64,000 bases of DNA from Eubacteriales bacterium (GCA_045612185.1 JAZKYO010000100.1:13606-77605); one strand, 5' to 3'. Numbered from the stretch's first letter, positions 2,225 through 13,401 are shown. Made by a program: numbers and translations. The notes: a model not told the origin generated them from the sequence alone.

Positions 2225-2319
2225 AACGTCAGATTAAACAAGTTTATTTTCAGTTTATATTGAGCTTGTATAATTTTGTCAAAATAACACGAAAGACGCG
2301 GCAGTAAATTGCCGCACCG

Positions 2320-3969
2320 ATGGTATATTCAATGAACACAAAAAGAATTGACGGAAAATGTTTTGCCCGTATGCTTCTTGGCGGTGCCGCAATGCTTGCG
2401 GAGCATATCGATGAGCTTAACGCACTTAACGTGTTCCCCGTCGCGGACGGAGATACCGGAACAAATATGCTGAAAACTGTAGAAGGGGGACTTGCCGCAG
2501 TCAATGACAAGTCCACGCCGAACATTGGAGAGCTTTCGGATATATTTGCCAAAGGCGTTCTGCTTTCGGCTCGAGGAAATTCGGGCGTTATTCTCTCACA
2601 AATATTTGCTGGAATAAACGATGGGCTCAAGACGTTGAACGACGTAAGCGCGACCGAGCTTGTAGGCGCATATCGCCACGGAGTGGAAAAGTCCTATGCG
2701 GCTGTTAAAACCCCTACGGAGGGCACTATTCTTACGGTCTTTCGCGAAAGTACGGAATTTGCGGCAGCTAATATTGACGACAACTCAAGCATTGAGGATT
2801 TCTTTAAGCTCCACATAGACGAGGCGCGGCGCTCGCTTGCCTCCACCAAGGAGAGATTACCCGTACTTGCCGAGGCTGACGTGGTTGACTCGGGCGCAGC
2901 GGGATATTTCTACATAGCCGAAGGAATGTACAAGGCGTTAAACAGCGATTTTGTGACATATGACTTACCAAACTCAGAAGAAAAAGGCAATGTAAACATC
3001 GACCTTTTCACCCGCAACAGCAAGCTTGAGTTCGGCTATTGCACCGAATTTCTTATAAGACTTACAACCGACAAGGTCGATCCCGACAGCTTCGATGTTC
3101 AAACGGCTCTTTCGGTGCTTGACACTCTTGGCGGTGAAAGCGTAGTAGCTTACAAGCAAGATGATATTCTCAAAATTCATGTTCACACCTTCCGTCCGGG
3201 CGAAATTATGAACGCAATGCAAGCTTTCGGAGAGTTTTTGACTGTCAAAATAGAGAATATGTCCTTGGGACACTCGGAATCCGTGAAACCGAAGAAAAAA
3301 AAGGCTAAAAAATTCTCTGTGGTTGCGGTGGCTACGGGTGAGGGCTTATCGGCGCTTTTCACCCACATGGGTGCCGAACAGATAATTTCGGGCGGTCAGA
3401 CCGCCAATCCCTCTGTTGAGGATTTCGTAAAGGCGTTTAAAAAATGTGACGGTGAAAACATTATAGTTCTTCCCAACAACAAAAATATCATTCTCGCCGC
3501 GAAACATGCGGCAGAGCTATATGAGGACGCCAGGGTTCACGTCATAGAAAGCAAAAATCTTATGCAAGGCTTTGGGGCACTTTCGGTCATCACCCCTGGA
3601 TTCACCGACGTTGACGCGCTTATTGCCAGCGCGCAAAGAGCAGCCGCGGGAGTAACAGACGGAGAAATAACCAAGGCTATAAGAGACACAACTGTCGACG
3701 GAAAGGTTATAAAAAGCGGCGACTACATTTCAATAAGCGACGGCAAAATCACCGCTGTCGCAAAAAATGCAGAGGACGCGGCACTTGCCATGCTTGAAGC
3801 ATCCGACACCGATTTGTGTGAGATAATTACTCTGTTTGTCGGCAAAAACGTTTCGGCAGACAAGCGTATTGAGCTATTGGAACGCTTGGAGGAAAGCTAC
3901 CCGGACTGCGAAATTACCGTTTACGACGGCGGTCAGGATGTTTACGACTACCTAATTGCTGTAGAATAG
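2320..3969 (+). CDS. fakA: DAK2-domain fatty acid kinase catalytic subunit (FakA/YloV family)
   Basis: LNALNVFPVADGDTGTNM, ARGNSGVILSQ, VVDSGA, GYCTEF and GGQTANPS motifs. Confidence 0.88.
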   Translation: MVYSMNTKRIDGKCFARMLLGGAAMLAEHIDELNALNVFPVADGDTGTNMLKTVEGGLAAVNDKSTPNIGELSDIFAKGVLLSARGNSGVILSQIFAGINDGLKTLNDVSATELVGAYRHGVEKSYAAVKTPTEGTILTVFRESTEFAAANIDDNSSIEDFFKLHIDEARRSLASTKERLPVLAEADVVDSGAAGYFYIAEGMYKALNSDFVTYDLPNSEEKGNVNIDLFTRNSKLEFGYCTEFLIRLTTDKVDPDSFDVQTALSVLDTLGGESVVAYKQDDILKIHVHTFRPGEIMNAMQAFGEFLTVKIENMSLGHSESVKPKKKKAKKFSVVAVATGEGLSALFTHMGAEQIISGGQTANPSVEDFVKAFKKCDGENIIVLPNNKNIILAAKHAAELYEDARVHVIESKNLMQGFGALSVITPGFTDVDALIASAQRAAAGVTDGEITKAIRDTTVDGKVIKSGDYISISDGKITAVAKNAEDAALAMLEASDTDLCEIITLFVGKNVSADKRIELLERLEESYPDCEITVYDGGQDVYDYLIAVE

Positions 3970-3977
3970 GAGTTCTT

Positions 3978-4967
3978 ATGGAAAAAATATACAAGGTTGT
4001 AATTGACACAAAGGGCGGAGACAAGGGCGCTTCCGCTATGATAAAGGGCGCTGTGCTTGCCTTAAAAAAACACACGTCGTTAGGGGTACTGTTGGTAGGC
4101 AACAAAGAGGAAATAGATAAAGAGCTTGCTCAATACGACTTTCCTGCAGACCGCGTTGAAATACTTGACGCGCGCGACGAGGTAACAAACTACGATTCTC
4201 CCGCAGACGCGCTCTATCACAAGCCCGAAGCCTCTATGTTAAAAGGATTGAACGAGCTTTCGTCACGTGAAGAGCTTATAGGCATGCTCTCTGCCGGCAA
4301 CACCGGAATATTGCTTACGGGGGCTATGAGGTATCTTCCTCTCAAAGTGCGCGTAAGACCCGCTCTCGCGGCAGTGCTTCCTGCGCAGAACGGTGCTTTC
4401 ACCTGCCTTGTTGACACCGGCGCCACAGTAGACTGCACCCCCGATATGCTTCAGCACTTCGCGCGTCTCGGATCTGAGTTCATGAGAAATATGTACGGTA
4501 TAGAAAGACCAAAGGTGGCTCTTTTGTCCAACGGAGCCGAGTCCTCAAAGGGCAACAAGCTGGTTAAGGAAACCTATCCTATTCTGGCGGCTGACGAAAC
4601 TATTAATTTTGTGGGCAACGTAGAGGGAAACACTGCCCTTTCGGGCTCTTGCGACGTGCTTGTGTGCGACGGATTTGCGGGCAATCAGGTGCTTAAGGTT
4701 ACCGAGGGTACGGCAACGCGCATTATTACCGACATTATGAAATACGCTCATAAAAACGGAAGTGACGAAATCAAAAAGCTTGCCGCGCACCTTATGGGTA
4801 TATACGACATCAGCTCGCTTGGCGGTGGAATAATACTCGGCGTTTCAAAGACAGTTATCAAAATACGCGGAAACGCAGGCGAGGAAGCGGTGGTCAACAC
4901 ATCCGAAATGCTCCTTAACATGGCGCAGAACAAGGCGGTATTTGACCAAAACAAAAACAAGATTTAA
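3978..4967 (+). CDS. plsX: Phosphate acyltransferase PlsX-like (divergent)
   Basis: IDTKGGD, SAGNTG, RPALA, NFVGNVEG, DVLVCDGFAGN; the canonical DAMGGD and KSHG motifs are altered. Confidence 0.8.
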   Translation: MEKIYKVVIDTKGGDKGASAMIKGAVLALKKHTSLGVLLVGNKEEIDKELAQYDFPADRVEILDARDEVTNYDSPADALYHKPEASMLKGLNELSSREELIGMLSAGNTGILLTGAMRYLPLKVRVRPALAAVLPAQNGAFTCLVDTGATVDCTPDMLQHFARLGSEFMRNMYGIERPKVALLSNGAESSKGNKLVKETYPILAADETINFVGNVEGNTALSGSCDVLVCDGFAGNQVLKVTEGTATRIITDIMKYAHKNGSDEIKKLAAHLMGIYDISSLGGGIILGVSKTVIKIRGNAGEEAVVNTSEMLLNMAQNKAVFDQNKNKI

Positions 4968-4979
4968 TGAGGTAGAAAA

Positions 4980-5882
4980 ATGCCAAATATTAAAATTATA
5001 TGCACGTCAACCGGATGCATTGAATACGCGCCCGAGAGATACAGAAATCTCGGCATAGATATTTTGCGTATTCACGTTTTCTGGCAAGGCAAGGAATACA
5101 GAGAAGGACTTGACCTTGACCCGATAGATTTTTACGACCAGCTTGAAAAGCTGGAGGACCCAAAAAACAATCTACCCTACACCGGTATGCCCGAAACCGA
5201 GGAAATCCGCGCTTGCTTTGACAACGCTATAAAAGAGGGGTGCGACGAGGCAATGGTATTTGTGCTGTCGGCGGCTCTCGGTGGCACGTACAATAAGATT
5301 TGCCTTATTGCAAAGGAGTATGAAAGCAAACTGAAAATCAGCGTCATAGACACAAAGTTAACCTGTTTTGGCGAAGGTTTACTTGCTATAAAGGCATCTG
5401 AGTTCGCACGAAAAGGAATGTCAAGCGACGAGATAATGAAAGAGATAAAGTGGATGATGAAGCATCAGCTCTTTATGGGAGTTGACGGCAAACTTGACTA
5501 CCTCATCTACAACGGCAGACTTAAAGGCGGCAAAGCATTCCTTGGTCAGCTTTTCAACATCTGTCCCGTTATACACTTCTCTCCCGAGGGCGAGATTGTA
5601 CCCCTTGAGAGCGTTCGTACTCCCAAGAAAGCATTGGCACGCACCTGCGAGCTTCTTAAGGAAAGAATAGGCGACCGTTCACCCGAGGACTACCTGCTCT
5701 GGCACATTTACACAGGTCCGTCTCTTATCGAAACCCTTAAGGGTATTGAAGGTAAATTCGGCATTGAAACCAACCACGAGGCGGTAATTATGTCTCCCGT
5801 AAGCGGAGCTCACAACGGGCCGTGGCTTGCGGGCTACGGATTGGCATTTATACGCCGAGATGACGAGCCCTTGGAGGATTGA
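4980..5882 (+). CDS. DegV/FakB fatty-acid-binding protein
   Basis: DegV fold motifs LSAALGGTY, VIDT, LDYLIYNGRL, PVSGAHNGP. Confidence 0.85.
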   Translation: MPNIKIICTSTGCIEYAPERYRNLGIDILRIHVFWQGKEYREGLDLDPIDFYDQLEKLEDPKNNLPYTGMPETEEIRACFDNAIKEGCDEAMVFVLSAALGGTYNKICLIAKEYESKLKISVIDTKLTCFGEGLLAIKASEFARKGMSSDEIMKEIKWMMKHQLFMGVDGKLDYLIYNGRLKGGKAFLGQLFNICPVIHFSPEGEIVPLESVRTPKKALARTCELLKERIGDRSPEDYLLWHIYTGPSLIETLKGIEGKFGIETNHEAVIMSPVSGAHNGPWLAGYGLAFIRRDDEPLED

Positions 5883-7009
5883 GCATGGTAGAAATAAGAG
5901 AGGTAAAGACCTCGTATGACGTCAAGGAATTTATAGAATTGCCCTTACGGCTATACCAAGACTGCCCATATTTCGTTCCCCCACTTTACACAGACGAGAA
6001 AAAACTGTTAAAATCCGGGGGAAACAGCGATACCGCCGAATCTGTATTTTATCTTGCCGAAAAGGAAGGAAAAACGGTAGGCAGAATACACGGAATTATT
6101 CAAAAGCAGTTTAACGCCAATCACGACAAAAATCAGATGCGTTTCACACGCTTTGACAGTACGGACGACCAAGAGGTTGCCGACGCACTCTTTGCGGCGC
6201 TTGAAAGTTGGGGAAAATCCAGAGGCATGACAGAAATTTGCGGTCCGCTTGGCTTTAACGACCTTGACCGCGAGGGTTTGCTTGTTGAGGGCTTTGACGA
6301 GGATTCCACCTTTGAGGAGCAATATAATTACGATTATTATAGCAGGCTAATAGAAATCGCAGGCTTCAAAAAAGACGTTGATTGGGTGGAATACGAGCTT
6401 AAACTGCCCAAAGAACGAAACGTCATGCTTGCCCGTGTGGCACAGCGCACGCTTGAAATAAACAAGCTACACGTTGCTGACACGAGTCTTTCCAAGAAAG
6501 CCTACATAAACAAGTACCGCGACGGATTTTTTGAGTGTCTTGACGAGTGTTACAGCAAGCTTTACGGCACTGTTCCCATTTCCAAAAGTGCTCAGGACGA
6601 GCTTATAAATCAGTTTATGATGATAGTAAACAAGGAATATGCTGTTTTTATATGCGATGAAAACGAGCGAGTTGTTGCCTTTGGTCTTTGCTTTCCAAGC
6701 ATAGGTAACGCGGTTAAAAAAAGCGGAGGCAGGCTAACACTTCCCACGCTTTTCAGAATACTTAGCGCGGTCAAGAATTCCGACACCATAGACCTGGGTC
6801 TCGTGGCTGTGCGCCCCGAATATCAGAGCACGGGTGTAAACGCGGTTATTCTGAACGGCTTGCTTGACATTCTTGAAAAAGGAAAGGTTAAAAAGTGCGA
6901 GACCAATCTCAACCTTGAAACCAACACAGCGGTTCAAGCACAGTGGAAATATTTTGACGCGCGCCAGCACAAGCGCAGACGCTCATACATTAAAGAAATA
7001 GGAGAATGA
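5879..7009 (+). CDS. Tandem-GNAT N-acyltransferase of the YghO / bacterial ceramide synthase (bCerS)-like family
   Basis: FIELPLRLY..PYFVPPL, GRI.GII, GPLGFNDLDREGLLVEGFD, YNYDYY and VAVRPEYQSTG; family recognised from memory. Confidence 0.7.
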   Translation: MSMVEIREVKTSYDVKEFIELPLRLYQDCPYFVPPLYTDEKKLLKSGGNSDTAESVFYLAEKEGKTVGRIHGIIQKQFNANHDKNQMRFTRFDSTDDQEVADALFAALESWGKSRGMTEICGPLGFNDLDREGLLVEGFDEDSTFEEQYNYDYYSRLIEIAGFKKDVDWVEYELKLPKERNVMLARVAQRTLEINKLHVADTSLSKKAYINKYRDGFFECLDECYSKLYGTVPISKSAQDELINQFMMIVNKEYAVFICDENERVVAFGLCFPSIGNAVKKSGGRLTLPTLFRILSAVKNSDTIDLGLVAVRPEYQSTGVNAVILNGLLDILEKGKVKKCETNLNLETNTAVQAQWKYFDARQHKRRRSYIKEIGE

Positions 7010-7233
7010 TTATGCTTGAAAAACTTAAAGAGATACTTGGCAAAGTACTGCCAAACGTAGATATGTCAAAGGTTACCGAAGACACCAAAATGGTAGAGGA
7101 TTTGGGCTTTGACTCGCTTGCTATGATGATGATGTCAATGGAAATTGAGGACGCCTTCAACTTCAAGTTTGCGGAATTTGTCAAGTTTGAAACAGTAGGA
7201 GACGTTTGCAAATATCTCGAAAGCAGAATATAA
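7006..7233 (+). CDS. Acyl carrier protein
   Basis: DLGFDSL phosphopantetheine motif, acidic 75-aa protein, ETVGDV. Confidence 0.9.
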   Translation: MIMLEKLKEILGKVLPNVDMSKVTEDTKMVEDLGFDSLAMMMMSMEIEDAFNFKFAEFVKFETVGDVCKYLESRI

Positions 7234-7237
7234 CGCC

Positions 7238-7272
7238 AAAGGGCCGAGTTAACAAACTCGGCTTCTTTGTTT
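7238..7272 (+). terminator. Intrinsic terminator of the lipid operon
   Basis: GCCGAGTT-AACA-AACTCGGC followed by TTCTTTGTTT. Confidence 0.75.
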
Positions 7273-7304
7273 AAATAATTTCAACACATCTGAGGAGGTA
7301 TAAA

Positions 7305-8147
7305 ATGAAAGACAAAAAATTGACGGCAAAAAAGACAGAAGCTTTCAAGAGTTTTCTCACAAATGAGGAAAAAAGTGCGGCAACAATCGACAAATATATG
7401 CGAGATTTGCGTACTTTCAAGGATTTCATTGCCGAAAAACCCATAAACAAGCAATTGATTATGGAATACAAAAAATTGCTTGGCAACAGCTACGCTGTAG
7501 CAAGCGCCAACTCTATGATAGCCGCTCTTAACTCTTTTTTCAGGTTTTGCGGTTGGTACGAGCTGTGCATAAAGCAATTCCGAGTCCAAAAGCCCGCCTT
7601 CTGCTCCGAAGAAAAGGAGCTGAGCAAGGCTGAATATTTTCGACTTCTTGAAGCTTCAAGAAAAAGCAACAACGAAAGATTGAATTTAATAATCCAAACT
7701 ATCTGCTCAACAGGAATAAGGGTAAGCGAACTTGAATATGTAACGGTAGAAGCCCTTTATCAAGACAAGGTAACCGTAGACTGTAAAAATAAAACCCGTC
7801 ACATTTTCATTATATCGGAGCTTAAAAAACGGCTGATAAAATACGCACAAAAGCATGGCATAACTGCAGGTCCGGTGTTTGTGACAAGAAGCGGCAAACC
7901 TATAAGCAGATCAAACATCTGGCGTGAAATGAAGGGCTTGTGCGAGCAGGCACGTGTTTCGCCCAACAAGGTATTCCCCCATAACCTGAGACATCTGTTC
8001 GCCCGCACCTTTTACAGCATAGAAAAGGACATTGCCAAGTTAGCGGACATTCTCGGACACACCAACATAAACACCACTCGAATTTATATTATTACCACCG
8101 GCGCCGAACACAAAAGAAAGATGGAGAATTTACGGCTGATAAGCTGA
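7305..8147 (+). CDS. Tyrosine site-specific recombinase (putative DNA invertase)
   Basis: Complete catalytic set: TGIRVSEL (R), CKNK (K), HNLRH (HxxR), LGH, RIY (Y); 280 aa with no arm-binding domain. Confidence 0.92.
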   Translation: MKDKKLTAKKTEAFKSFLTNEEKSAATIDKYMRDLRTFKDFIAEKPINKQLIMEYKKLLGNSYAVASANSMIAALNSFFRFCGWYELCIKQFRVQKPAFCSEEKELSKAEYFRLLEASRKSNNERLNLIIQTICSTGIRVSELEYVTVEALYQDKVTVDCKNKTRHIFIISELKKRLIKYAQKHGITAGPVFVTRSGKPISRSNIWREMKGLCEQARVSPNKVFPHNLRHLFARTFYSIEKDIAKLADILGHTNINTTRIYIITTGAEHKRKMENLRLIS

Positions 8148-8544: not shown

Positions 8545-9696
8545 TTGTCACAAAAGCCCAACAGCACAAAAGAACGCGTTTTGTTTATCGCCATCATAGT
8601 CGTAGCTGTACTGTTGATTTTAAGCATTTCACTTTTGATTGCCGTTAAAGTCAGAGATTCGTCTGACATTCCCGTGTCGTCCGACAACGTGATCGGTATT
8701 TCGGGAAAAGCTGACCTGCCCGTTGTCAGACTTGGAGACTTTTCTTTAAGCAATCAGTATTTCGATTCCTCTGCCACGGCTGTTTTTCTTACGTCCACAA
8801 ATGAAGATAAGCTGACTTTGTCTTGGTGGACGGGTTACGGCGCGAAAAAAAGTTTTACCGCGACAAATCTTATGCCGGGTGACGTTGTGTCGCAACAGTT
8901 TACCGTTACAGAAAAAAACAACCGCGCTCAAAGCATGCGTTTCGACATCAAAAACATTACCGAAAAAAGCAGCGTGTCTTCGGGAGCAAACGTTAAGCTT
9001 GCCGATATTCTCAACGTTACCGTTGCAGTCGGAGAAAAAGCCCTTTATAACGGACCTTTTTCTCAAGCTCAGGATATCCGTTGCGATCTTCTCCCCGGTG
9101 CGTCGCCTCAGTCGGTTACATACTCGATAACGGTAAGCATGCCCAAGTCGGCAGGTAACGAATACGCCTACAAATCACTTACCGCTGATTTTTCGTGGAC
9201 ACTTGAGGAGCTTCCCTATCCGTCGCCCGGAGAAAACTATTTCCCCGAATATGACGAAACGACGCATGTGCCCGATACCGAGCCGATAGCCCCCCCCGAT
9301 ACTGAGCCTATCGACCCGCCCGACACCGAGCCAATAGAGCCCCCCGATACCGAGCCTATCGATCCGCCCGATACCGAGCCAATTGAGCCCCCCGATACTG
9401 AGCCTATCGACCCGCCCGACACCGAGCCGATTGAGCCGCCGATAACAGTCGACGAACACGAGGACTGTTGCAGCTGTATCATCTGTCACGGACTTGCGGG
9501 GCTGTTCGGTATACACAACGAAACCTGCTTTACGTGTAATATAATCACAGCTATAAGCGGTTCGGAAGAATTTGTTTGTCTGTGTCCCATAGACTGTCTC
9601 TTTCTTCTCATTGTAGTAATTGCGCTTGCGGCAGTCGTTATCAGAATTCTCTGGGTAAAGAGAAAAGTTAAACAAATTACCAAAAATCAAGAATAA
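8545..9696 (+). CDS. TasA/CalY-like domain protein with acidic Pro-rich stalk, Cys-rich segment and C-terminal membrane anchor
   Basis: N-terminal hydrophobic segment, NLMPGD and AGNEY motifs shared with the neighbouring subunits, PDTEPI(D/E)P repeats, C-terminal TM plus basic tail; TTG start with GGAGG. Confidence 0.7.
   Translation: MSQKPNSTKERVLFIAIIVVAVLLILSISLLIAVKVRDSSDIPVSSDNVIGISGKADLPVVRLGDFSLSNQYFDSSATAVFLTSTNEDKLTLSWWTGYGAKKSFTATNLMPGDVVSQQFTVTEKNNRAQSMRFDIKNITEKSSVSSGANVKLADILNVTVAVGEKALYNGPFSQAQDIRCDLLPGASPQSVTYSITVSMPKSAGNEYAYKSLTADFSWTLEELPYPSPGENYFPEYDETTHVPDTEPIAPPDTEPIDPPDTEPIEPPDTEPIDPPDTEPIEPPDTEPIDPPDTEPIEPPITVDEHEDCCSCIICHGLAGLFGIHNETCFTCNIITAISGSEEFVCLCPIDCLFLLIVVIALAAVVIRILWVKRKVKQITKNQE
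9271..9438 (+). repeat. Coding tandem repeat, 7 x 24 bp (PDTEPI[A/D/E]P)
   Basis: Repeat units read directly in DNA and protein. Confidence 0.95.
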
Positions 9697-9708
9697 CTCA
9701 AAGGAGAA

Positions 9709-10257
9709 ATGTCAGTGAAAAATTTAAGCATATCGAAAAAGCTGGCAATCAGCGTAGTGCTTCTGACAGTACTGTCACTCTGCCTTTGCGTTACCACCTT
9801 TGCGTTAACCTATTCAATCGTCACGGTAGAAAACAACATATTTTCATCCGGATACGTCAGTATTAACCTCAACGACGGAAAGCCGATTATTGAAGAAGAC
9901 GAATTTATCTTTGAACCCGGTATGACCGTAAAGAAAGATTTCTTTATCAAAAACAACAGCTCGTGGAGCGTTTATTATAAACTTTACTTTGACAACGTTG
10001 ACGGAGAGCTTGCTGACAGCCTGCTCATATCCATATCTGATGGAGATAGAATCCTTTATTCGGGAACGGCGAAAACCCTTGACAAATCGGTGCTCGCCGC
10101 CGATGACGAGCTTGCTATAGGTGAAAAACGCGAGCTTACGGTAACCTTCCATTTCCCAAACAACTTGGGAGACAAATTGCAAAACCAAGAATTGACCTTT
10201 GACCTCTGCGCCGACGCGGTGCAAACCAAGAATAATACTGAAAAATTATTTAATTAG
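9709..10257 (+). CDS. Small TasA/CalY-like SipW-substrate protein
   Basis: Signal peptide ending TTFA; ENNIFSSG, FEPG, YKLYF and DAVQTKNN motifs typical of SipW-cluster proteins. Confidence 0.7.
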   Translation: MSVKNLSISKKLAISVVLLTVLSLCLCVTTFALTYSIVTVENNIFSSGYVSINLNDGKPIIEEDEFIFEPGMTVKKDFFIKNNSSWSVYYKLYFDNVDGELADSLLISISDGDRILYSGTAKTLDKSVLAADDELAIGEKRELTVTFHFPNNLGDKLQNQELTFDLCADAVQTKNNTEKLFN

Positions 10258-10265
10258 GAGTATTT

Positions 10266-10988
10266 ATGACAAAGGAAAACAACAAAAAAAGCGTTTGGAG
10301 TATCATAAAGACGGTTTTTGTATGGCTTATCGTAGCCATTACGGTGCTTATTATGATATTCACCATTATCTCGGTCACAACATTTGACCAGAACGACAGA
10401 AATCTGTTCGGATTTAAGTTCTTCATCGTACAAACAGACTCAATGGCAGCAACCGATTTTGATGCGGGTGACGTTATCATTTCAAAAAACGTTGACGTTA
10501 CAAGCCTTAAAGAAGGCGACATCATTACCTTTATCTCTCAAGACCCCACCAACTACGGCGAAACCGTAACCCATAAAATCCGTGAGGTTACAAGAGATAC
10601 AGACGGCACAATAGCCTTCGTTACATACGGTACTACAACTAACGTAAACGACGAAACACTCGCTACTATCGTAGTAGGTAAATACATAGGCAAAATTCCC
10701 AATCTGGGCGCGTTTTTTCTCTTTCTTAAAACAACACCCGGTTATATTCTTTGCGTTCTTGTTCCTTTCCTTATTCTTATATTGTTTCAAGGAATTAACG
10801 TTATTGTTCTGTTCCGCAAATACAAAAAAGAACAGCTTGACGAAATGAACGCGGAAAAAGAAAAGCTTGAGCAAGAGCGTGCAGAAAGCCAGCGTATGAT
10901 GGCGGAGCTTATGGAGCTGAGAGCTCAACTTGCAAAACAGGAAGGCGGCAACACCGATAAACCCGAGGAGCAACCGCCCCAAGAATAA
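10266..10988 (+). CDS. sipW: Signal peptidase I, SipW/S26B (ER-type)
   Basis: Catalytic Ser in QTDSM, GDII, His in VTHKI, N- and C-terminal TM segments; located among SipW-class substrates. Confidence 0.85.
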   Translation: MTKENNKKSVWSIIKTVFVWLIVAITVLIMIFTIISVTTFDQNDRNLFGFKFFIVQTDSMAATDFDAGDVIISKNVDVTSLKEGDIITFISQDPTNYGETVTHKIREVTRDTDGTIAFVTYGTTTNVNDETLATIVVGKYIGKIPNLGAFFLFLKTTPGYILCVLVPFLILILFQGINVIVLFRKYKKEQLDEMNAEKEKLEQERAESQRMMAELMELRAQLAKQEGGNTDKPEEQPPQE

Positions 10989-11027
10989 TTAGTTGTATTG
11001 CGGAAAATCCGCTTTGCATAAAGTTAG
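10989..11027 (+). promoter_or_regulatory. Conserved leader stem-loop, copy 1 (also at 13500-13538 and 14324-14363)
   Basis: TGTA-TT-GCGGA-AAA-TCCGC-TT-TGCA hairpin upstream of the RBS of three subunit genes. Confidence 0.6.
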
Positions 11028-11055
11028 CCACACCACAATAAAGGAGGAAAAGACA

Positions 11056-13401
11056 ATGACTAACAAGAAGACAACCAAGCGCGCGTTGCTCCTTAGCGTT
11101 GTAGCACTTTTGCTTTGCTTCACAATGCTTATGGGTACAACTTACGCATGGTTCACAGACTCTGTTACGAGCACAGGAAACAAGATCGTAGCAGGAACAC
11201 TTGACGTCAAGCTTTTGATGTACAACGCAAACACAGGAGATTATGAGGACATCTCCACAACAACCGATCCCGTTATCGGTGCTGCTATCTTTGGCGAGGG
11301 CACAACAGCAAACGCTGACACCGCAGCTACCCTTTGGGAGCCCGGCAAGACTCAGACTGTATACCTTGCTATCGAGAACGCAGGCTCGCTTGATCTCAAG
11401 TATCAGGTAGCTCTTGAAGTTAAGAACGTTGAGAAGAATCTCACAGACGTTGTTAGCTACGCGATCTCTCCCGATGCAAAGCCCGACTCACAGCCCGTCA
11501 ACGGTTGGGTTGGTAACGGCATTCAGGTTGGCATGGGTATCAACCCCACAGCTTCTCAGAACGTAGCTCTTGCAGCAGGTAACACTCACTACTTCGCACT
11601 CTCCGTACATATGGACGAGGATGCAGGCAATGACTACATGAACGGCTCTATCGAGTTCGACATCAAGGTACTTGCTACTCAGCTTAATGCAGAAAATGAC
11701 AGCTTTGGTCCCGATTATGACGAGGATTCCACATATTATATAGAGTCCGAGTCGGTAGACACCACACAGGAAGTAACTAACAACATTATGTTTACATCTC
11801 ACAGCTCTAACAATTCGGTTAAGCTTGCTGTAAGTAAGGAAATACTCAATAATCTTCCTGCTGAAGTTGAATCCGTAGTTTTCTCTCACTCCGATCCTAA
11901 AGTTGACGAAGTAAACAAGATTATCTCTTACAATCACTTCGAGCTTGAGGATCAGAACGGCGCGGCTATCGACCTTACAAGCAACACTACTCCCATCGTC
12001 GTAACACTTCCCGCACAGGACTTCTTCCCTGCCGGCGAGTACGTTACAGTTAAGCACGACGGTGAAATTATAGGCGTAGGTCTTGTAAACGACGACACAA
12101 CTATCACCTATGAGGCAGTTCACTTCTGCGAGGTAGAGATTAGTGAAGCTGACGCGGCTTTCATTGCCGTTATCGCAAGCAAGCCCTATAACACTCTTCA
12201 GGATGCTATCAACGACGCAAAAGACGGCGACGTTATCAACCTTATGAGAGGCAGAGTGTCCGAAATCAGCGAAACTCTAAACGTTACGACAAACGCCAAC
12301 ATCAACGGTAACGGAAACGTTATCAAGAGAGCCGATGGTGCTGAAAATATAGTTATGTTTAGCGTAAACGACGGAAAGACACTTACTCTTTCCAACATCA
12401 CCCTTGACGGTGGCGCAGTTTGGACAGGTGAAATAAACCCCCACCTTCTTCGCGGAACTGAAAACAGCGGTAAAACAACAGGCGGTTATTTGATTTCTAC
12501 AGCCAAAGGCCATATCGTACTTGAAGAAGGTGCAATTCTTCAGAACAATGACGGTGCAAACGCAGTTTTCCCCGGAACTCGTACCGGTGGCACGCTCACA
12601 ATTAACGGCGGCGAGATTATCAACAATCATTCCGCTGCAGGTGCAATTTGGGGCGGTGGTGCTATCACTCTCAACTCCGGTAAAATAAACGGAAATCACG
12701 GCGGTATCGGCGGTGCTATCCGCGTAGTTACAAACATAGGCACAGTTCTTACTATGAACGGCGGTGAGATGAACCATAATATGTCTGATGCCGTCGGCGG
12801 CGCTATCTGGGCCGGTTCCAGCAGAAGCACCAACGTATACGTTCTCAACGGCGGTGAAATGGCTTACAACTATTCCGCATCAACAGGCGGTGCTATCTAC
12901 GCAGGCTACTACGAAACAGTTAAGATTGGCGGAGATTTCAAGATGCACGATAACAGCTGTTCGGCAAATATCGGCGCTGAAATCAGATTCCACGATCACG
13001 CAAGCCTTATTATGACGGGCGGTGAGGTTTCCAACGAGGCAGATAACGCATTCTACCTCAACAACAACTCCGCATCTATAACGGGCGGTAAGTACGTTGG
13101 TAACCTCGGTTACTCCGGCGGTCTTGGTCTTACCATCGGTGAGGCTGACATTGAAGGTGTTATCGCGTACGATCTTGCCACTAACCACAATACAGCAAAC
13201 CTTGCTACAAGCTTTAACAGCTTCAAGTTTACAGTTAACGAAAGCGCGGCTAACTTCGCACAGTTCAACTTCAAACCCGCCGCAGGTTACGTATACACCG
13301 AAGGCGACGAAGCTAAGCTTGTTTGCATGAACGAGGGTTACGAAACCTATTGGGATGCAGCGGCAGGAGTGTTCAAGCTTCAGACAGTTGCTGAAAACTA
13401 A
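11056..13401 (+). CDS. SipW-dependent TasA/CalY-type subunit with C-terminal beta-helix adhesin-like region
   Basis: SipW-class signal TTYAWFTDS, LWEPG, AGNDY, ATQ; GGAI-repeat beta-helix; AAGGAGG RBS places the start at 11056. Confidence 0.82.
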   Translation: MTNKKTTKRALLLSVVALLLCFTMLMGTTYAWFTDSVTSTGNKIVAGTLDVKLLMYNANTGDYEDISTTTDPVIGAAIFGEGTTANADTAATLWEPGKTQTVYLAIENAGSLDLKYQVALEVKNVEKNLTDVVSYAISPDAKPDSQPVNGWVGNGIQVGMGINPTASQNVALAAGNTHYFALSVHMDEDAGNDYMNGSIEFDIKVLATQLNAENDSFGPDYDEDSTYYIESESVDTTQEVTNNIMFTSHSSNNSVKLAVSKEILNNLPAEVESVVFSHSDPKVDEVNKIISYNHFELEDQNGAAIDLTSNTTPIVVTLPAQDFFPAGEYVTVKHDGEIIGVGLVNDDTTITYEAVHFCEVEISEADAAFIAVIASKPYNTLQDAINDAKDGDVINLMRGRVSEISETLNVTTNANINGNGNVIKRADGAENIVMFSVNDGKTLTLSNITLDGGAVWTGEINPHLLRGTENSGKTTGGYLISTAKGHIVLEEGAILQNNDGANAVFPGTRTGGTLTINGGEIINNHSAAGAIWGGGAITLNSGKINGNHGGIGGAIRVVTNIGTVLTMNGGEMNHNMSDAVGGAIWAGSSRSTNVYVLNGGEMAYNYSASTGGAIYAGYYETVKIGGDFKMHDNSCSANIGAEIRFHDHASLIMTGGEVSNEADNAFYLNNNSASITGGKYVGNLGYSGGLGLTIGEADIEGVIAYDLATNHNTANLATSFNSFKFTVNESAANFAQFNFKPAAGYVYTEGDEAKLVCMNEGYETYWDAAAGVFKLQTVAEN

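Follow-up and report, generated by a model that had tools for sequence, protein, structure and literature searches.

A conserved FakA-PlsX-DegV-GNAT-ACP gene set in gut Clostridia as a candidate N-acyl-lipid module

Exogenous fatty acids are handled in Firmicutes such as Staphylococcus aureus and the streptococci by the FakA/FakB and PlsX route, which in S. aureus-type systems feeds PlsY and PlsC. Ceramide formation in bacteria is the task of bacterial ceramide synthase (bCerS; ccna_01212 in Caulobacter, BF9343_4218 in Bacteroides fragilis), which shares with Escherichia coli YghO a length of about 375-390 amino acids and a tandem-GNAT fold. Proteobacterial sphingolipid loci possess a private carrier protein and a fatty-acid activator (a PP-binding protein and a fatty acyl-AMP ligase in Pseudomonas, an acyl carrier protein (ACP) in Roseomonas), and the acyl group activated there by adenylation supplies serine palmitoyltransferase (Spt) and is not known to supply the N-acyltransferase. 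Acyl-ACP-dependent N-acylation is exemplified by FeeM, an N-acyl amino acid synthase that works with the ACP FeeL, and gut Clostridia have gene clusters for fatty-acid amides. The subject of this article is a set of five genes in a 64,000-nucleotide stretch of the genome of an Eubacteriales bacterium (GCA_045612185.1, JAZKYO010000100.1:13606-77605; the whole stretch is called the window below), in which a FakA-like kinase, a PlsX paralogue, a DegV/FakB-type protein, a tandem GNAT of the YghO/bCerS family and an ACP are encoded one after the other (Table 1).

All parts of this operon belong to known families; what is new is that an enzyme of the bCerS family is wired to a private FakA/FakB/PlsX/ACP cassette, and that this wiring is confined to genomes without detectable genes of type II fatty acid synthesis (FASII), most of which also have no Spt-like gene. 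The GNAT resembles bCerS and YghO in length and fold and has the motifs VGRI, GPxxxN, EGLLxEGFD and LETN in common with them, but sits in a Fak/PlsX/ACP operon rather than in a sphingolipid locus. With the S. aureus-type system the operon shares three protein families, and the same chemistry, from fatty acid through acyl-phosphate to acyl-ACP, would be expected; its genes are, however, second copies with 24-44% identity to the organism's own housekeeping set, and instead of feeding PlsY and PlsC they putatively share a transcript with genes for a private ACP and for an N-acyltransferase. Proteobacterial sphingolipid loci likewise keep a private carrier and activator, but they adenylate the acyl chain, whereas the operon would use a kinase and PlsX and has no Spt that we could find. 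The logic of FeeM/FeeL and of the amide clusters of gut Clostridia is the same in that a carrier-bound acyl group is passed to an amine and that gut Clostridia scavenge fatty acids, but the families are unlike those of the window, FeeM being a single-domain GNAT-like synthase and the amide clusters having condensation and adenylation domains of the non-ribosomal peptide synthetase type.

The account that we favour, with a probability of roughly 0.6, is that the operon equips a bacterium unable to make fatty acids with an N-acyl-lipid module complete in itself, and it is best read as a CoA-independent route in which a scavenged fatty acid is turned first into acyl-phosphate, then into acyl-ACP, and ends up on the nitrogen of a long-chain amine. 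The DegV/FakB paralogue would bind the scavenged fatty acid, the FakA paralogue would phosphorylate it to acyl-phosphate, the PlsX paralogue would move the acyl group onto the operon's own ACP, and the tandem GNAT would pass it to a long-chain amine, acylating the amino group. The likeliest acceptor would be a sphingoid base (sphinganine or 3-ketosphinganine), made by the cell itself in two carriers (G027 and G018) and imported in the genus of the window. In essence this is the pathway that the first-pass annotation had proposed for the window. The checks of it that can be made by computation turned out favourably: the GNAT does not group away from bCerS, and the operon's lipid genes are not the only copies in the genome. 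The acceptor amine and the use of acyl-ACP as donor are, like the direction of the PlsX reaction, what we infer.

The evidence that carries this account begins with the recurrence of the gene set. The same five genes occur in Clostridia of four families (f1, f14, f34 and f83), in no fewer than 12 genomes and in three orders, FakA-PlsX-DegV-GNAT-ACP, FakA-DegV-GNAT-PlsX-ACP and FakA-DegV-GNAT-ACP-PlsX; a set that recurs in other genomes in three arrangements is not a matter of chance. A GNAT homologue is present in 13 of 41 relatives, the window genome counted, and of 13 loci around such homologues in the other genomes, seven have Fak/PlsX/ACP genes as far as their contigs reach. The most similar protein (G007, 79% identity) stands in the order seen in the window, five others with 47-48% identity (G002, G013, G009, G001 and G010) follow the second order as far as their contigs extend, and G018 (51% identity) has the third. 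In G027 the GNAT is flanked by FakA and DegV only, one further locus has a DegV gene about 2 kb away, and in four the GNAT stands alone. In a sample spanning the class, 50 of 399 scored genomes have a GNAT homologue at E <= 1e-40; among 40 loci of this sample the gene set surrounds the GNAT in four (G371, G349, G213 and G417), DegV accompanies it in G319, an ACP-like match lies 1.6 kb away in one, and 34 contain the GNAT alone. A GNAT gene on a Chloroflexota plasmid also adjoins a DegV gene. The G319 GNAT gene (L138, C74:52266-53387) belongs to the same clade as the Fak-linked genes and has one in-frame TGA, which may reflect a pseudogene or a sequencing error. The neighbours of stand-alone GNATs were considered as clues to the substrate and rejected, since they are lineage-specific housekeeping genes only (PGM, HD-domain and SPFH/NfeD proteins, and a PaaK-like ligase with an ACT protein).

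The linked GNATs also hold together phylogenetically. In a first tree of 66 sequences (LG+G4 model) the 12 Fak-linked members fell into one clade with a value of 99 in the SH-like approximate likelihood-ratio test (SH-aLRT), and in a second tree of 57 sequences, computed with a posterior mean site frequency (PMSF) mixture model, a clade of 16 sequences received an SH-aLRT value of 100 and included two stand-alone copies of family f85; both were quick searches without bootstraps. The Fak-linked clade is nested in a radiation of Bacteroidota and Clostridia sequences, from which a long branch leads to the clade of proteobacterial sphingolipid loci.

Assignment of the GNAT to the YghO/bCerS family rests on homology over its full length. 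It is 27% identical to YghO of E. coli K-12 over residues 6-374 (E 5e-41), 25.5% and 27.6% identical to the Roseomonas and Pseudomonas GNATs with 99% of the query covered, and 39.8% and 35.7% identical to homologues from Phocaeicola and Prevotella, and it is a single copy in the window genome. An AlphaFold2 model built on an alignment of 60 sequences (mean predicted local distance difference test score 95.5, predicted template-modelling score 0.91) shows two GNAT domains in a single polypeptide of about 375 amino acids, and its top Foldseek matches in the Protein Data Bank are tandem GNATs (2wpw, 5kf1, 7q3a, MshD and Eis; template-modelling score about 0.6). Domain libraries are of little help here: Pfam returns a weak generic Acetyltransf_1 match to the C-terminal half only, no Pfam or NCBIfam model recognises the YghO/bCerS family, and E. 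coli YghO itself has no Pfam match. Searches of the Protein Data Bank with the sequence and with a profile of the 60 sequences gave generic RimI/Naa-type matches on the C-terminal GNAT and no YghO/bCerS structure, and a protein atlas search with the GNAT returned 'GNAT family' clusters only.

The bridge to enzymes of validated function is built from gene context. On a Roseomonas plasmid the homologous GNAT gene lies among genes for an ACP, a pyridoxal phosphate-dependent aminotransferase-family protein, a diacylglycerol kinase-like protein, a CDP-alcohol phosphatidyltransferase, two LptF/G-family permeases and a sterol-desaturase-family protein; on a Pseudomonas plasmid it lies among genes for a class I/II aminotransferase, a PP-binding protein, an NAD-dependent epimerase, a fatty acyl-AMP ligase, LptF, LptG and an acylglycerol-kinase-family protein. 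An excerpt of a study of Caulobacter gives ccna_01212 and ccna_01226 as the limits of the sphingolipid operons and identifies lptG2 with CCNA_01213 and lptF2 with CCNA_01214 (bioRxiv 10.64898/2026.04.12.717747); the company of GNAT and LptF/G genes in the plasmid loci matches the placement of ccna_01212 next to lptG2 and lptF2 given there. Judged by this synteny, the GNATs of the Roseomonas and Pseudomonas loci are YghO-type proteins that stand where bCerS would be expected. The ceramide synthases named in the excerpted literature are CCNA_01212 and BF9343_4218, and in one such excerpt BF9343_4218 and BF9343_4240 are separated by a gap of 22 genes (bioRxiv 10.1101/2023.05.23.541633). Each of four Bacteroides/Phocaeicola genomes has exactly one homologue of the Pseudomonas GNAT, and in B. 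salyersiae the best CerR-like match is 25 kb from it, which fits the published spacing as excerpted; a 39.5-kb contig of B. finegoldii has the GNAT and no CerR-like gene. The scan for Bacteroidales homologues returned 80 loci, and B. fragilis was not among them; the window GNAT is tied to validated bCerS proteins through synteny, single-copy status and a CerR-like neighbour and not by direct alignment. With this proviso, the first-pass annotation's placement of the GNAT in the bCerS family appears sound, and the motifs that it quoted (VPPL, GPLGFNDLDREGLLVEGFDE and YNYDYY in the GNAT, IDTKGGD and KIRGN in PlsX) are all found in the translations. As an aside, yghO of E. coli K-12 adjoins an IS5 element (L010:14044-16341), and a figure legend of a 2026 preprint names a sphingolipid operon in E. 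coli UTI89; the K-12 gene may be the remnant of a sphingolipid locus.

The other four genes are assigned with varying firmness in a genome assembly of 2.62 Mb in 154 contigs (92.9% complete). The FakA-like protein matches Dak2 (PF02734), FakA-like_M (PF21645) and FakA-like_C (PF13684), scores 529 bits on the YloV model TIGR03599 (cut-off 396) and 435 bits on the narrow S. aureus-type equivalog NF038248 (cut-off 975), and has a DGDTG motif that we take to play a role in FakA. PlsX clearly belongs to its fold family (PF02504, 239.5 bits). The DegV protein scores 191.9 bits on TIGR00762 (cut-off 99.7) and 172.6 bits on PF02645, and falls below the FakB1 equivalog NF038249 (93.9 bits against 350). 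The ACP matches PF00550 with 38 bits (cut-off 20.8), and all 11 ACPs of an alignment have the serine of its D-S-L motif. The first-pass annotation had left it to a genome search whether these are the only copies, and they are not: another fakA/yloV gene (571.6 bits, 43.5% identity) adjoins a degV gene on contig C94, a housekeeping plsX (324.4 bits, 33.6% identity) lies on C30, another ACP gene (68.8 bits, 39.7% identity) lies on C133, and the operon's degV is one of three in the genome, sharing 24-26% identity with the other two, on C94 and C5. The fakA, plsX, degV and acp genes of the operon are thus, by comparison of their sequences, diverged second copies beside better-scoring housekeeping copies.

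A further line of evidence comes from fatty acid synthesis. Searches of the 92.9%-complete window genome detected neither a ketoacyl-synthase domain (PF00109) nor FabF, and the domain was found in none of the six operon carriers tested (the window genome and five others, those 94-99% complete), whereas it was present in all five genomes combining a stand-alone GNAT with an Spt-like gene and in all 14 control genomes. At the level of the order, none of 13 GNAT-bearing genomes has it, compared with 12 of 28 others (by genus, 0 of 6 against 12 of 22). Since no ketoacyl synthase was found, the operon carriers are probably fatty-acid auxotrophs, and for auxotrophic carriers the kinase route is the obvious means of acyl-chain activation. 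In the sample of relatives spanning the order the domain is missing from 29 of 41 genomes, and loss of fatty acid synthesis seems to be common in the order of the window.

Whether members of the class can make sphingoid bases was addressed with the Spt model NF047600, which is of the Cytophaga-Flavobacterium-Bacteroides type and has a curated cut-off of 640, in the 399 sampled Clostridia genomes. Its scores are two-peaked: 53 of the 399 genomes lie at 456-597 bits, 51 of these at 511 or above, and the next group does not exceed 414, although none of the 53 Spt-like genes reaches the curated cut-off. Five of the proteins were scanned (those of G018, G027, G298, G312 and G151), and every one scores 53-170 bits higher on the Spt model than on those for KBL and BioF. 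A short-chain dehydrogenase/reductase (SDR) of about 270 amino acids is encoded directly beside the Spt-like gene in 11 of 21 loci (L174-L194, for example L175:6196-8176 and L177:6968-9204) from many families, and the best NCBIfam match of the two SDRs that were scanned is the 3-ketodihydrosphingosine reductase KdsR (220.6 and 288.5 bits, cut-off 400). Spt-like genes occur in 29 of the 50 GNAT-bearing genomes compared with 24 of the 349 without the GNAT; seven families combine the two genes, and another seven possess the GNAT alone. The co-occurrence with Spt-like and KdsR-like genes therefore makes the stand-alone YghO-type GNATs of Clostridia look like ordinary ceramide synthases. The 24 genomes of the class sample with an Spt-like gene and no YghO-type GNAT at E <= 1e-40 may rely on a different N-acyltransferase, or their pathway may end with the long-chain base. 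The first-pass annotation had noted that sphingolipid synthesis is little described in Bacillota; our literature search found no paper on it in Clostridia, but with 53 of 399 genomes the Spt-like genes are not rare. Complete gene sets with Spt, KdsR-like and bCerS-type members are common in several Clostridia families, and we found no description of them in the literature.

Among the Fak-linked carriers the situation is different. Neither Roseomonas and Pseudomonas Spt queries nor NF047600 detected an Spt or any other alpha-oxoamine synthase in the window genome, which bears out at genome scale what had been noted for the window alone. No spt, cerR or kdsR gene was recognised there, and the co-occurrence looked for in support of a bCerS is thus lacking; the sphingoid base would therefore need to be taken up from the gut. 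The exceptions are G027, with an Spt-like gene of 549.6 bits and an adjacent gene for a KdsR-like SDR, and G018, where an Spt-like gene of 483.9 bits lies beside a gene for a FadD-like ligase. In both genomes the Fak-linked GNAT is the only YghO-type GNAT.

The points that weigh against this account are of several kinds, and are taken up here together with the alternatives on which they bear. The operon's PlsX scores 238.3 bits on TIGR00182, 5 bits below the cut-off of 243.4, and where the PlsX family has a histidine in its K-x-H-G-S/N motif, the window protein has an arginine (KIRGN). The first-pass annotation had seen in the altered motifs the mark of a dedicated paralogue; the motifs are real and a second copy does exist on C30, but G007 alone shares the arginine (KTRGN) and both the housekeeping copy and eight other operon PlsX proteins retain the histidine (K[GA]HG[SN]). 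A change restricted to the window and G007 is therefore no hallmark of the operon system, and on alignment it is a point of doubt about the window PlsX itself. The ACP falls below the AcpP equivalog TIGR00517 (48.6 bits against 70.45). No transporter and no sphingolipid-degrading gene was identified in the window genome. Genomes of the same lineage are not independent, so that Fisher tests on the GNAT associations overstate them. Finally, expression is hinted at and no more: contigs from RNA libraries, namely three bovine-gut metatranscriptome runs of one study, which, together with one DNA run, were aligned to the operon, cover parts of all five genes, several pieces with 0-2 differences, and one (3863-4045) spans the FakA/PlsX junction, but such contigs can hold DNA and cannot show transcript ends.

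A serious rival, in our view rather unlikely, retains the acyl supply and exchanges the acceptor: the clade would have been re-tooled for another amine, such as an amino acid, a polyamine, an amino sugar or a lyso-aminolipid, with a signal of the N-acyl amide type or an aminolipid as its product. Most carriers have no Spt; an Spt-like gene was found in none of the 13 searched genomes of the window's genus, and NF047600 detected none in G349, G371, G213 and G417. Uptake also speaks for another acceptor, since an excerpt of a labelled-sphinganine study of the mouse gut reports that 99% of the labelled cells were Bacteroides and lists Firmicutes, together with Tenericutes and Deferribacteres, among those not taking up dietary sphinganine (PMC7910519). 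The YghO family itself is probably broader in function than ceramide synthesis, as a distant YghO-type GNAT on an Ensifer plasmid (L042:7809-11126) lies between hypothetical genes and a gene for a ThiF-family adenylyltransferase, with no sphingolipid genes near it.

The sequences of the clade can be read in both directions. In 25 reference GNATs presumed to be true ceramide synthases (six from Bacteroidota and 19 Spt-associated ones from Clostridia) 75 columns are conserved in at least 92% of the sequences; the 16-member Fak-linked clade keeps 49 of them, and 26 are changed or variable. Fixed replacements include N75Q, T147E, N222D and P344L, and R91, R131, E146 and Q148 are fixed residues specific to the clade; T147, N222 and P344 are retained even by stand-alone GNATs from genomes without Spt, and the new acidic residues E146, E147 and D222 adjoin the conserved YN..YY motif. 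Such a pattern indicates a functional shift of the clade, and the 26 changes would fit a change of donor and equally a change of acceptor. What argues against a re-tooled acceptor is the retention of the other 49 positions, the presence of Spt-like genes in the two genomes (G027 and G018) whose sole YghO-type GNAT is the Fak-linked one, and the fact that no gene making another amine is conserved beside the operon.

Less likely than an exchanged acceptor is that the GNAT draws directly on FakB-bound acyl-phosphate or on acyl-CoA, with PlsX and ACP acting in parallel, for instance to bring scavenged fatty acid into phospholipid through PlsC. DegV, not ACP, is the most widely kept neighbour of the GNAT, which stands with FakA and DegV but without PlsX and ACP in G027 and with DegV alone in G319 and on the Chloroflexota plasmid; the genome has several AMP-binding ligase homologues that could make acyl-CoA, and the Caulobacter bCerS was reportedly assayed with acyl-CoA. 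Yet PlsX and ACP are present in every operon on a sufficiently long contig (the window, L023, L024, L026-L029 and L134-L136), and the C-terminal GNAT retains a Q-x-x-G-type loop (YQSTGV), which in the GNAT superfamily presumably holds the pantetheine pyrophosphate. Speculatively, the clade-fixed R91 and R131 could form a basic patch for docking of the ACP; predicted GNAT-ACP complexes scored 0.17 and 0.22 against a mark of 0.32, in predictions made without controls, and carry no weight in either direction. That the clustering means nothing, duplicated housekeeping lipid genes having come to lie beside an unrelated small-molecule or protein acetyltransferase, is most improbable, for although Pfam offers only the generic Acetyltransf_1 match and the closest solved folds are tandem GNATs that use acetyl-CoA, such as glucosamine N-acetyltransferase and MshD, the five genes stay linked through three orders and four families, the linked GNATs are monophyletic, and their closest relatives with an informative context are found in sphingolipid loci or co-occur with Spt.

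The N-acyl-lipid module invites a wider and more tentative proposal, which we regard as possible rather than probable: Clostridia without FASII and Spt would make ceramide-type lipids wholly by salvage, a bCerS-family enzyme having exchanged acyl-CoA as its donor for a private acyl-ACP that FakA, FakB and PlsX load, and the sphingoid base would come from the host, the diet or Bacteroidota. If true, Bacillota would gain a first pathway of ceramide salvage, and the GNAT would be the first N-acyltransferase fed by a kinase and PlsX; our literature search found no description of a FakA/FakB/PlsX/ACP cassette feeding an enzyme of the ceramide-synthase family. With the module read as an acyl supply for N-acylation, FakA, FakB and PlsX would gain a new use, loading acyl groups privately for a secondary lipid and not for phospholipid. 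Gut bacterial sphingolipids affect host immunity and lipid metabolism, and their production is credited almost wholly to Bacteroidota. The operon is a testable candidate for a means by which abundant, uncultured and genome-reduced Clostridia of the animal gut could assemble N-acyl lipids, among them possibly ceramides, out of material that they scavenge. Near-identical DNA in metagenomes from animal guts, where the largest word share was 0.42, indicates the habitat; word shares below 0.2 without aligned pieces were not counted as evidence of habitat.

The layout of the operon, as had been described in the first-pass annotation, is that of five closely packed open reading frames ending at one terminator-like hairpin: from 5' to 3' they are separated by gaps of 8 and 12 nucleotides and then overlap twice by 4 nucleotides. 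An alternative ATG start of the GNAT gene at 5885 would give a form of 374 amino acids. The promoter-like site upstream is weak evidence because 22 such sites were found in the region where 9.3 are expected.

Table 1. Genes and signals of the operon (positions counted from the first letter of the window)
Feature	Position	Strand	Remarks
Promoter-like site TTTTCA, 16 nt, TATAAT	2247-2274	+	46 nt 5' of the fakA-like gene; consensus scan
FakA-like fatty acid kinase, ATP-binding subunit (YloV family)	2320-3969	+	549 amino acids
PlsX paralogue (acyl-phosphate/acyl-ACP transacylase)	3978-4967	+	329 amino acids
DegV/FakB-type fatty-acid-binding protein	4980-5882	+	300 amino acids
Tandem-GNAT N-acyltransferase, YghO/bCerS family	5879-7009	+	376 amino acids, TTG start
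Acyl carrier protein, DSL phosphopantetheine-attachment motif	7006-7233	+	75 amino acids
Terminator-like hairpin (10 pairs), T-rich tail	7241-7264 (also given as 7241-7274)	+	8 nt past the ACP stop codon; consensus scan

As to the organism, the attribution to 'a Clostridium' goes beyond the evidence, for the nearest named protein comes from a metagenome-assembled genome labelled only 'Clostridia bacterium'. The operon is preceded by a gene for a TraX-family membrane protein (1484-2224) and directly followed by one for an XerC/D-like tyrosine recombinase (7305-8147), and neither is conserved beside other operons. In the tree the window GNAT groups nearest to a copy of family f85 and not with the other operons of its own genus. 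Taken together, the flanking recombinase and TraX genes and the position of the GNAT in the tree hint at horizontal acquisition of the operon.

Further out, a protein that joins a flavin reductase domain to a rubredoxin-like tail (105-665) is followed by a ferritin (680-1192), and the two probably form an oxidative-stress pair. On the other side of the operon lies a cluster of genes for secreted-looking proteins (8545-13401). Two of these proteins (9709-10257 and 10993-13401) have N-termini of the camelysin/TasA type (Peptidase_M73), and between them is encoded a membrane protein of 240 amino acids with no Pfam match. A protein of 383 amino acids in the same cluster contains PPDTEPI(D/E) repeated in tandem, with the repeat coding region at about 9240-9480.

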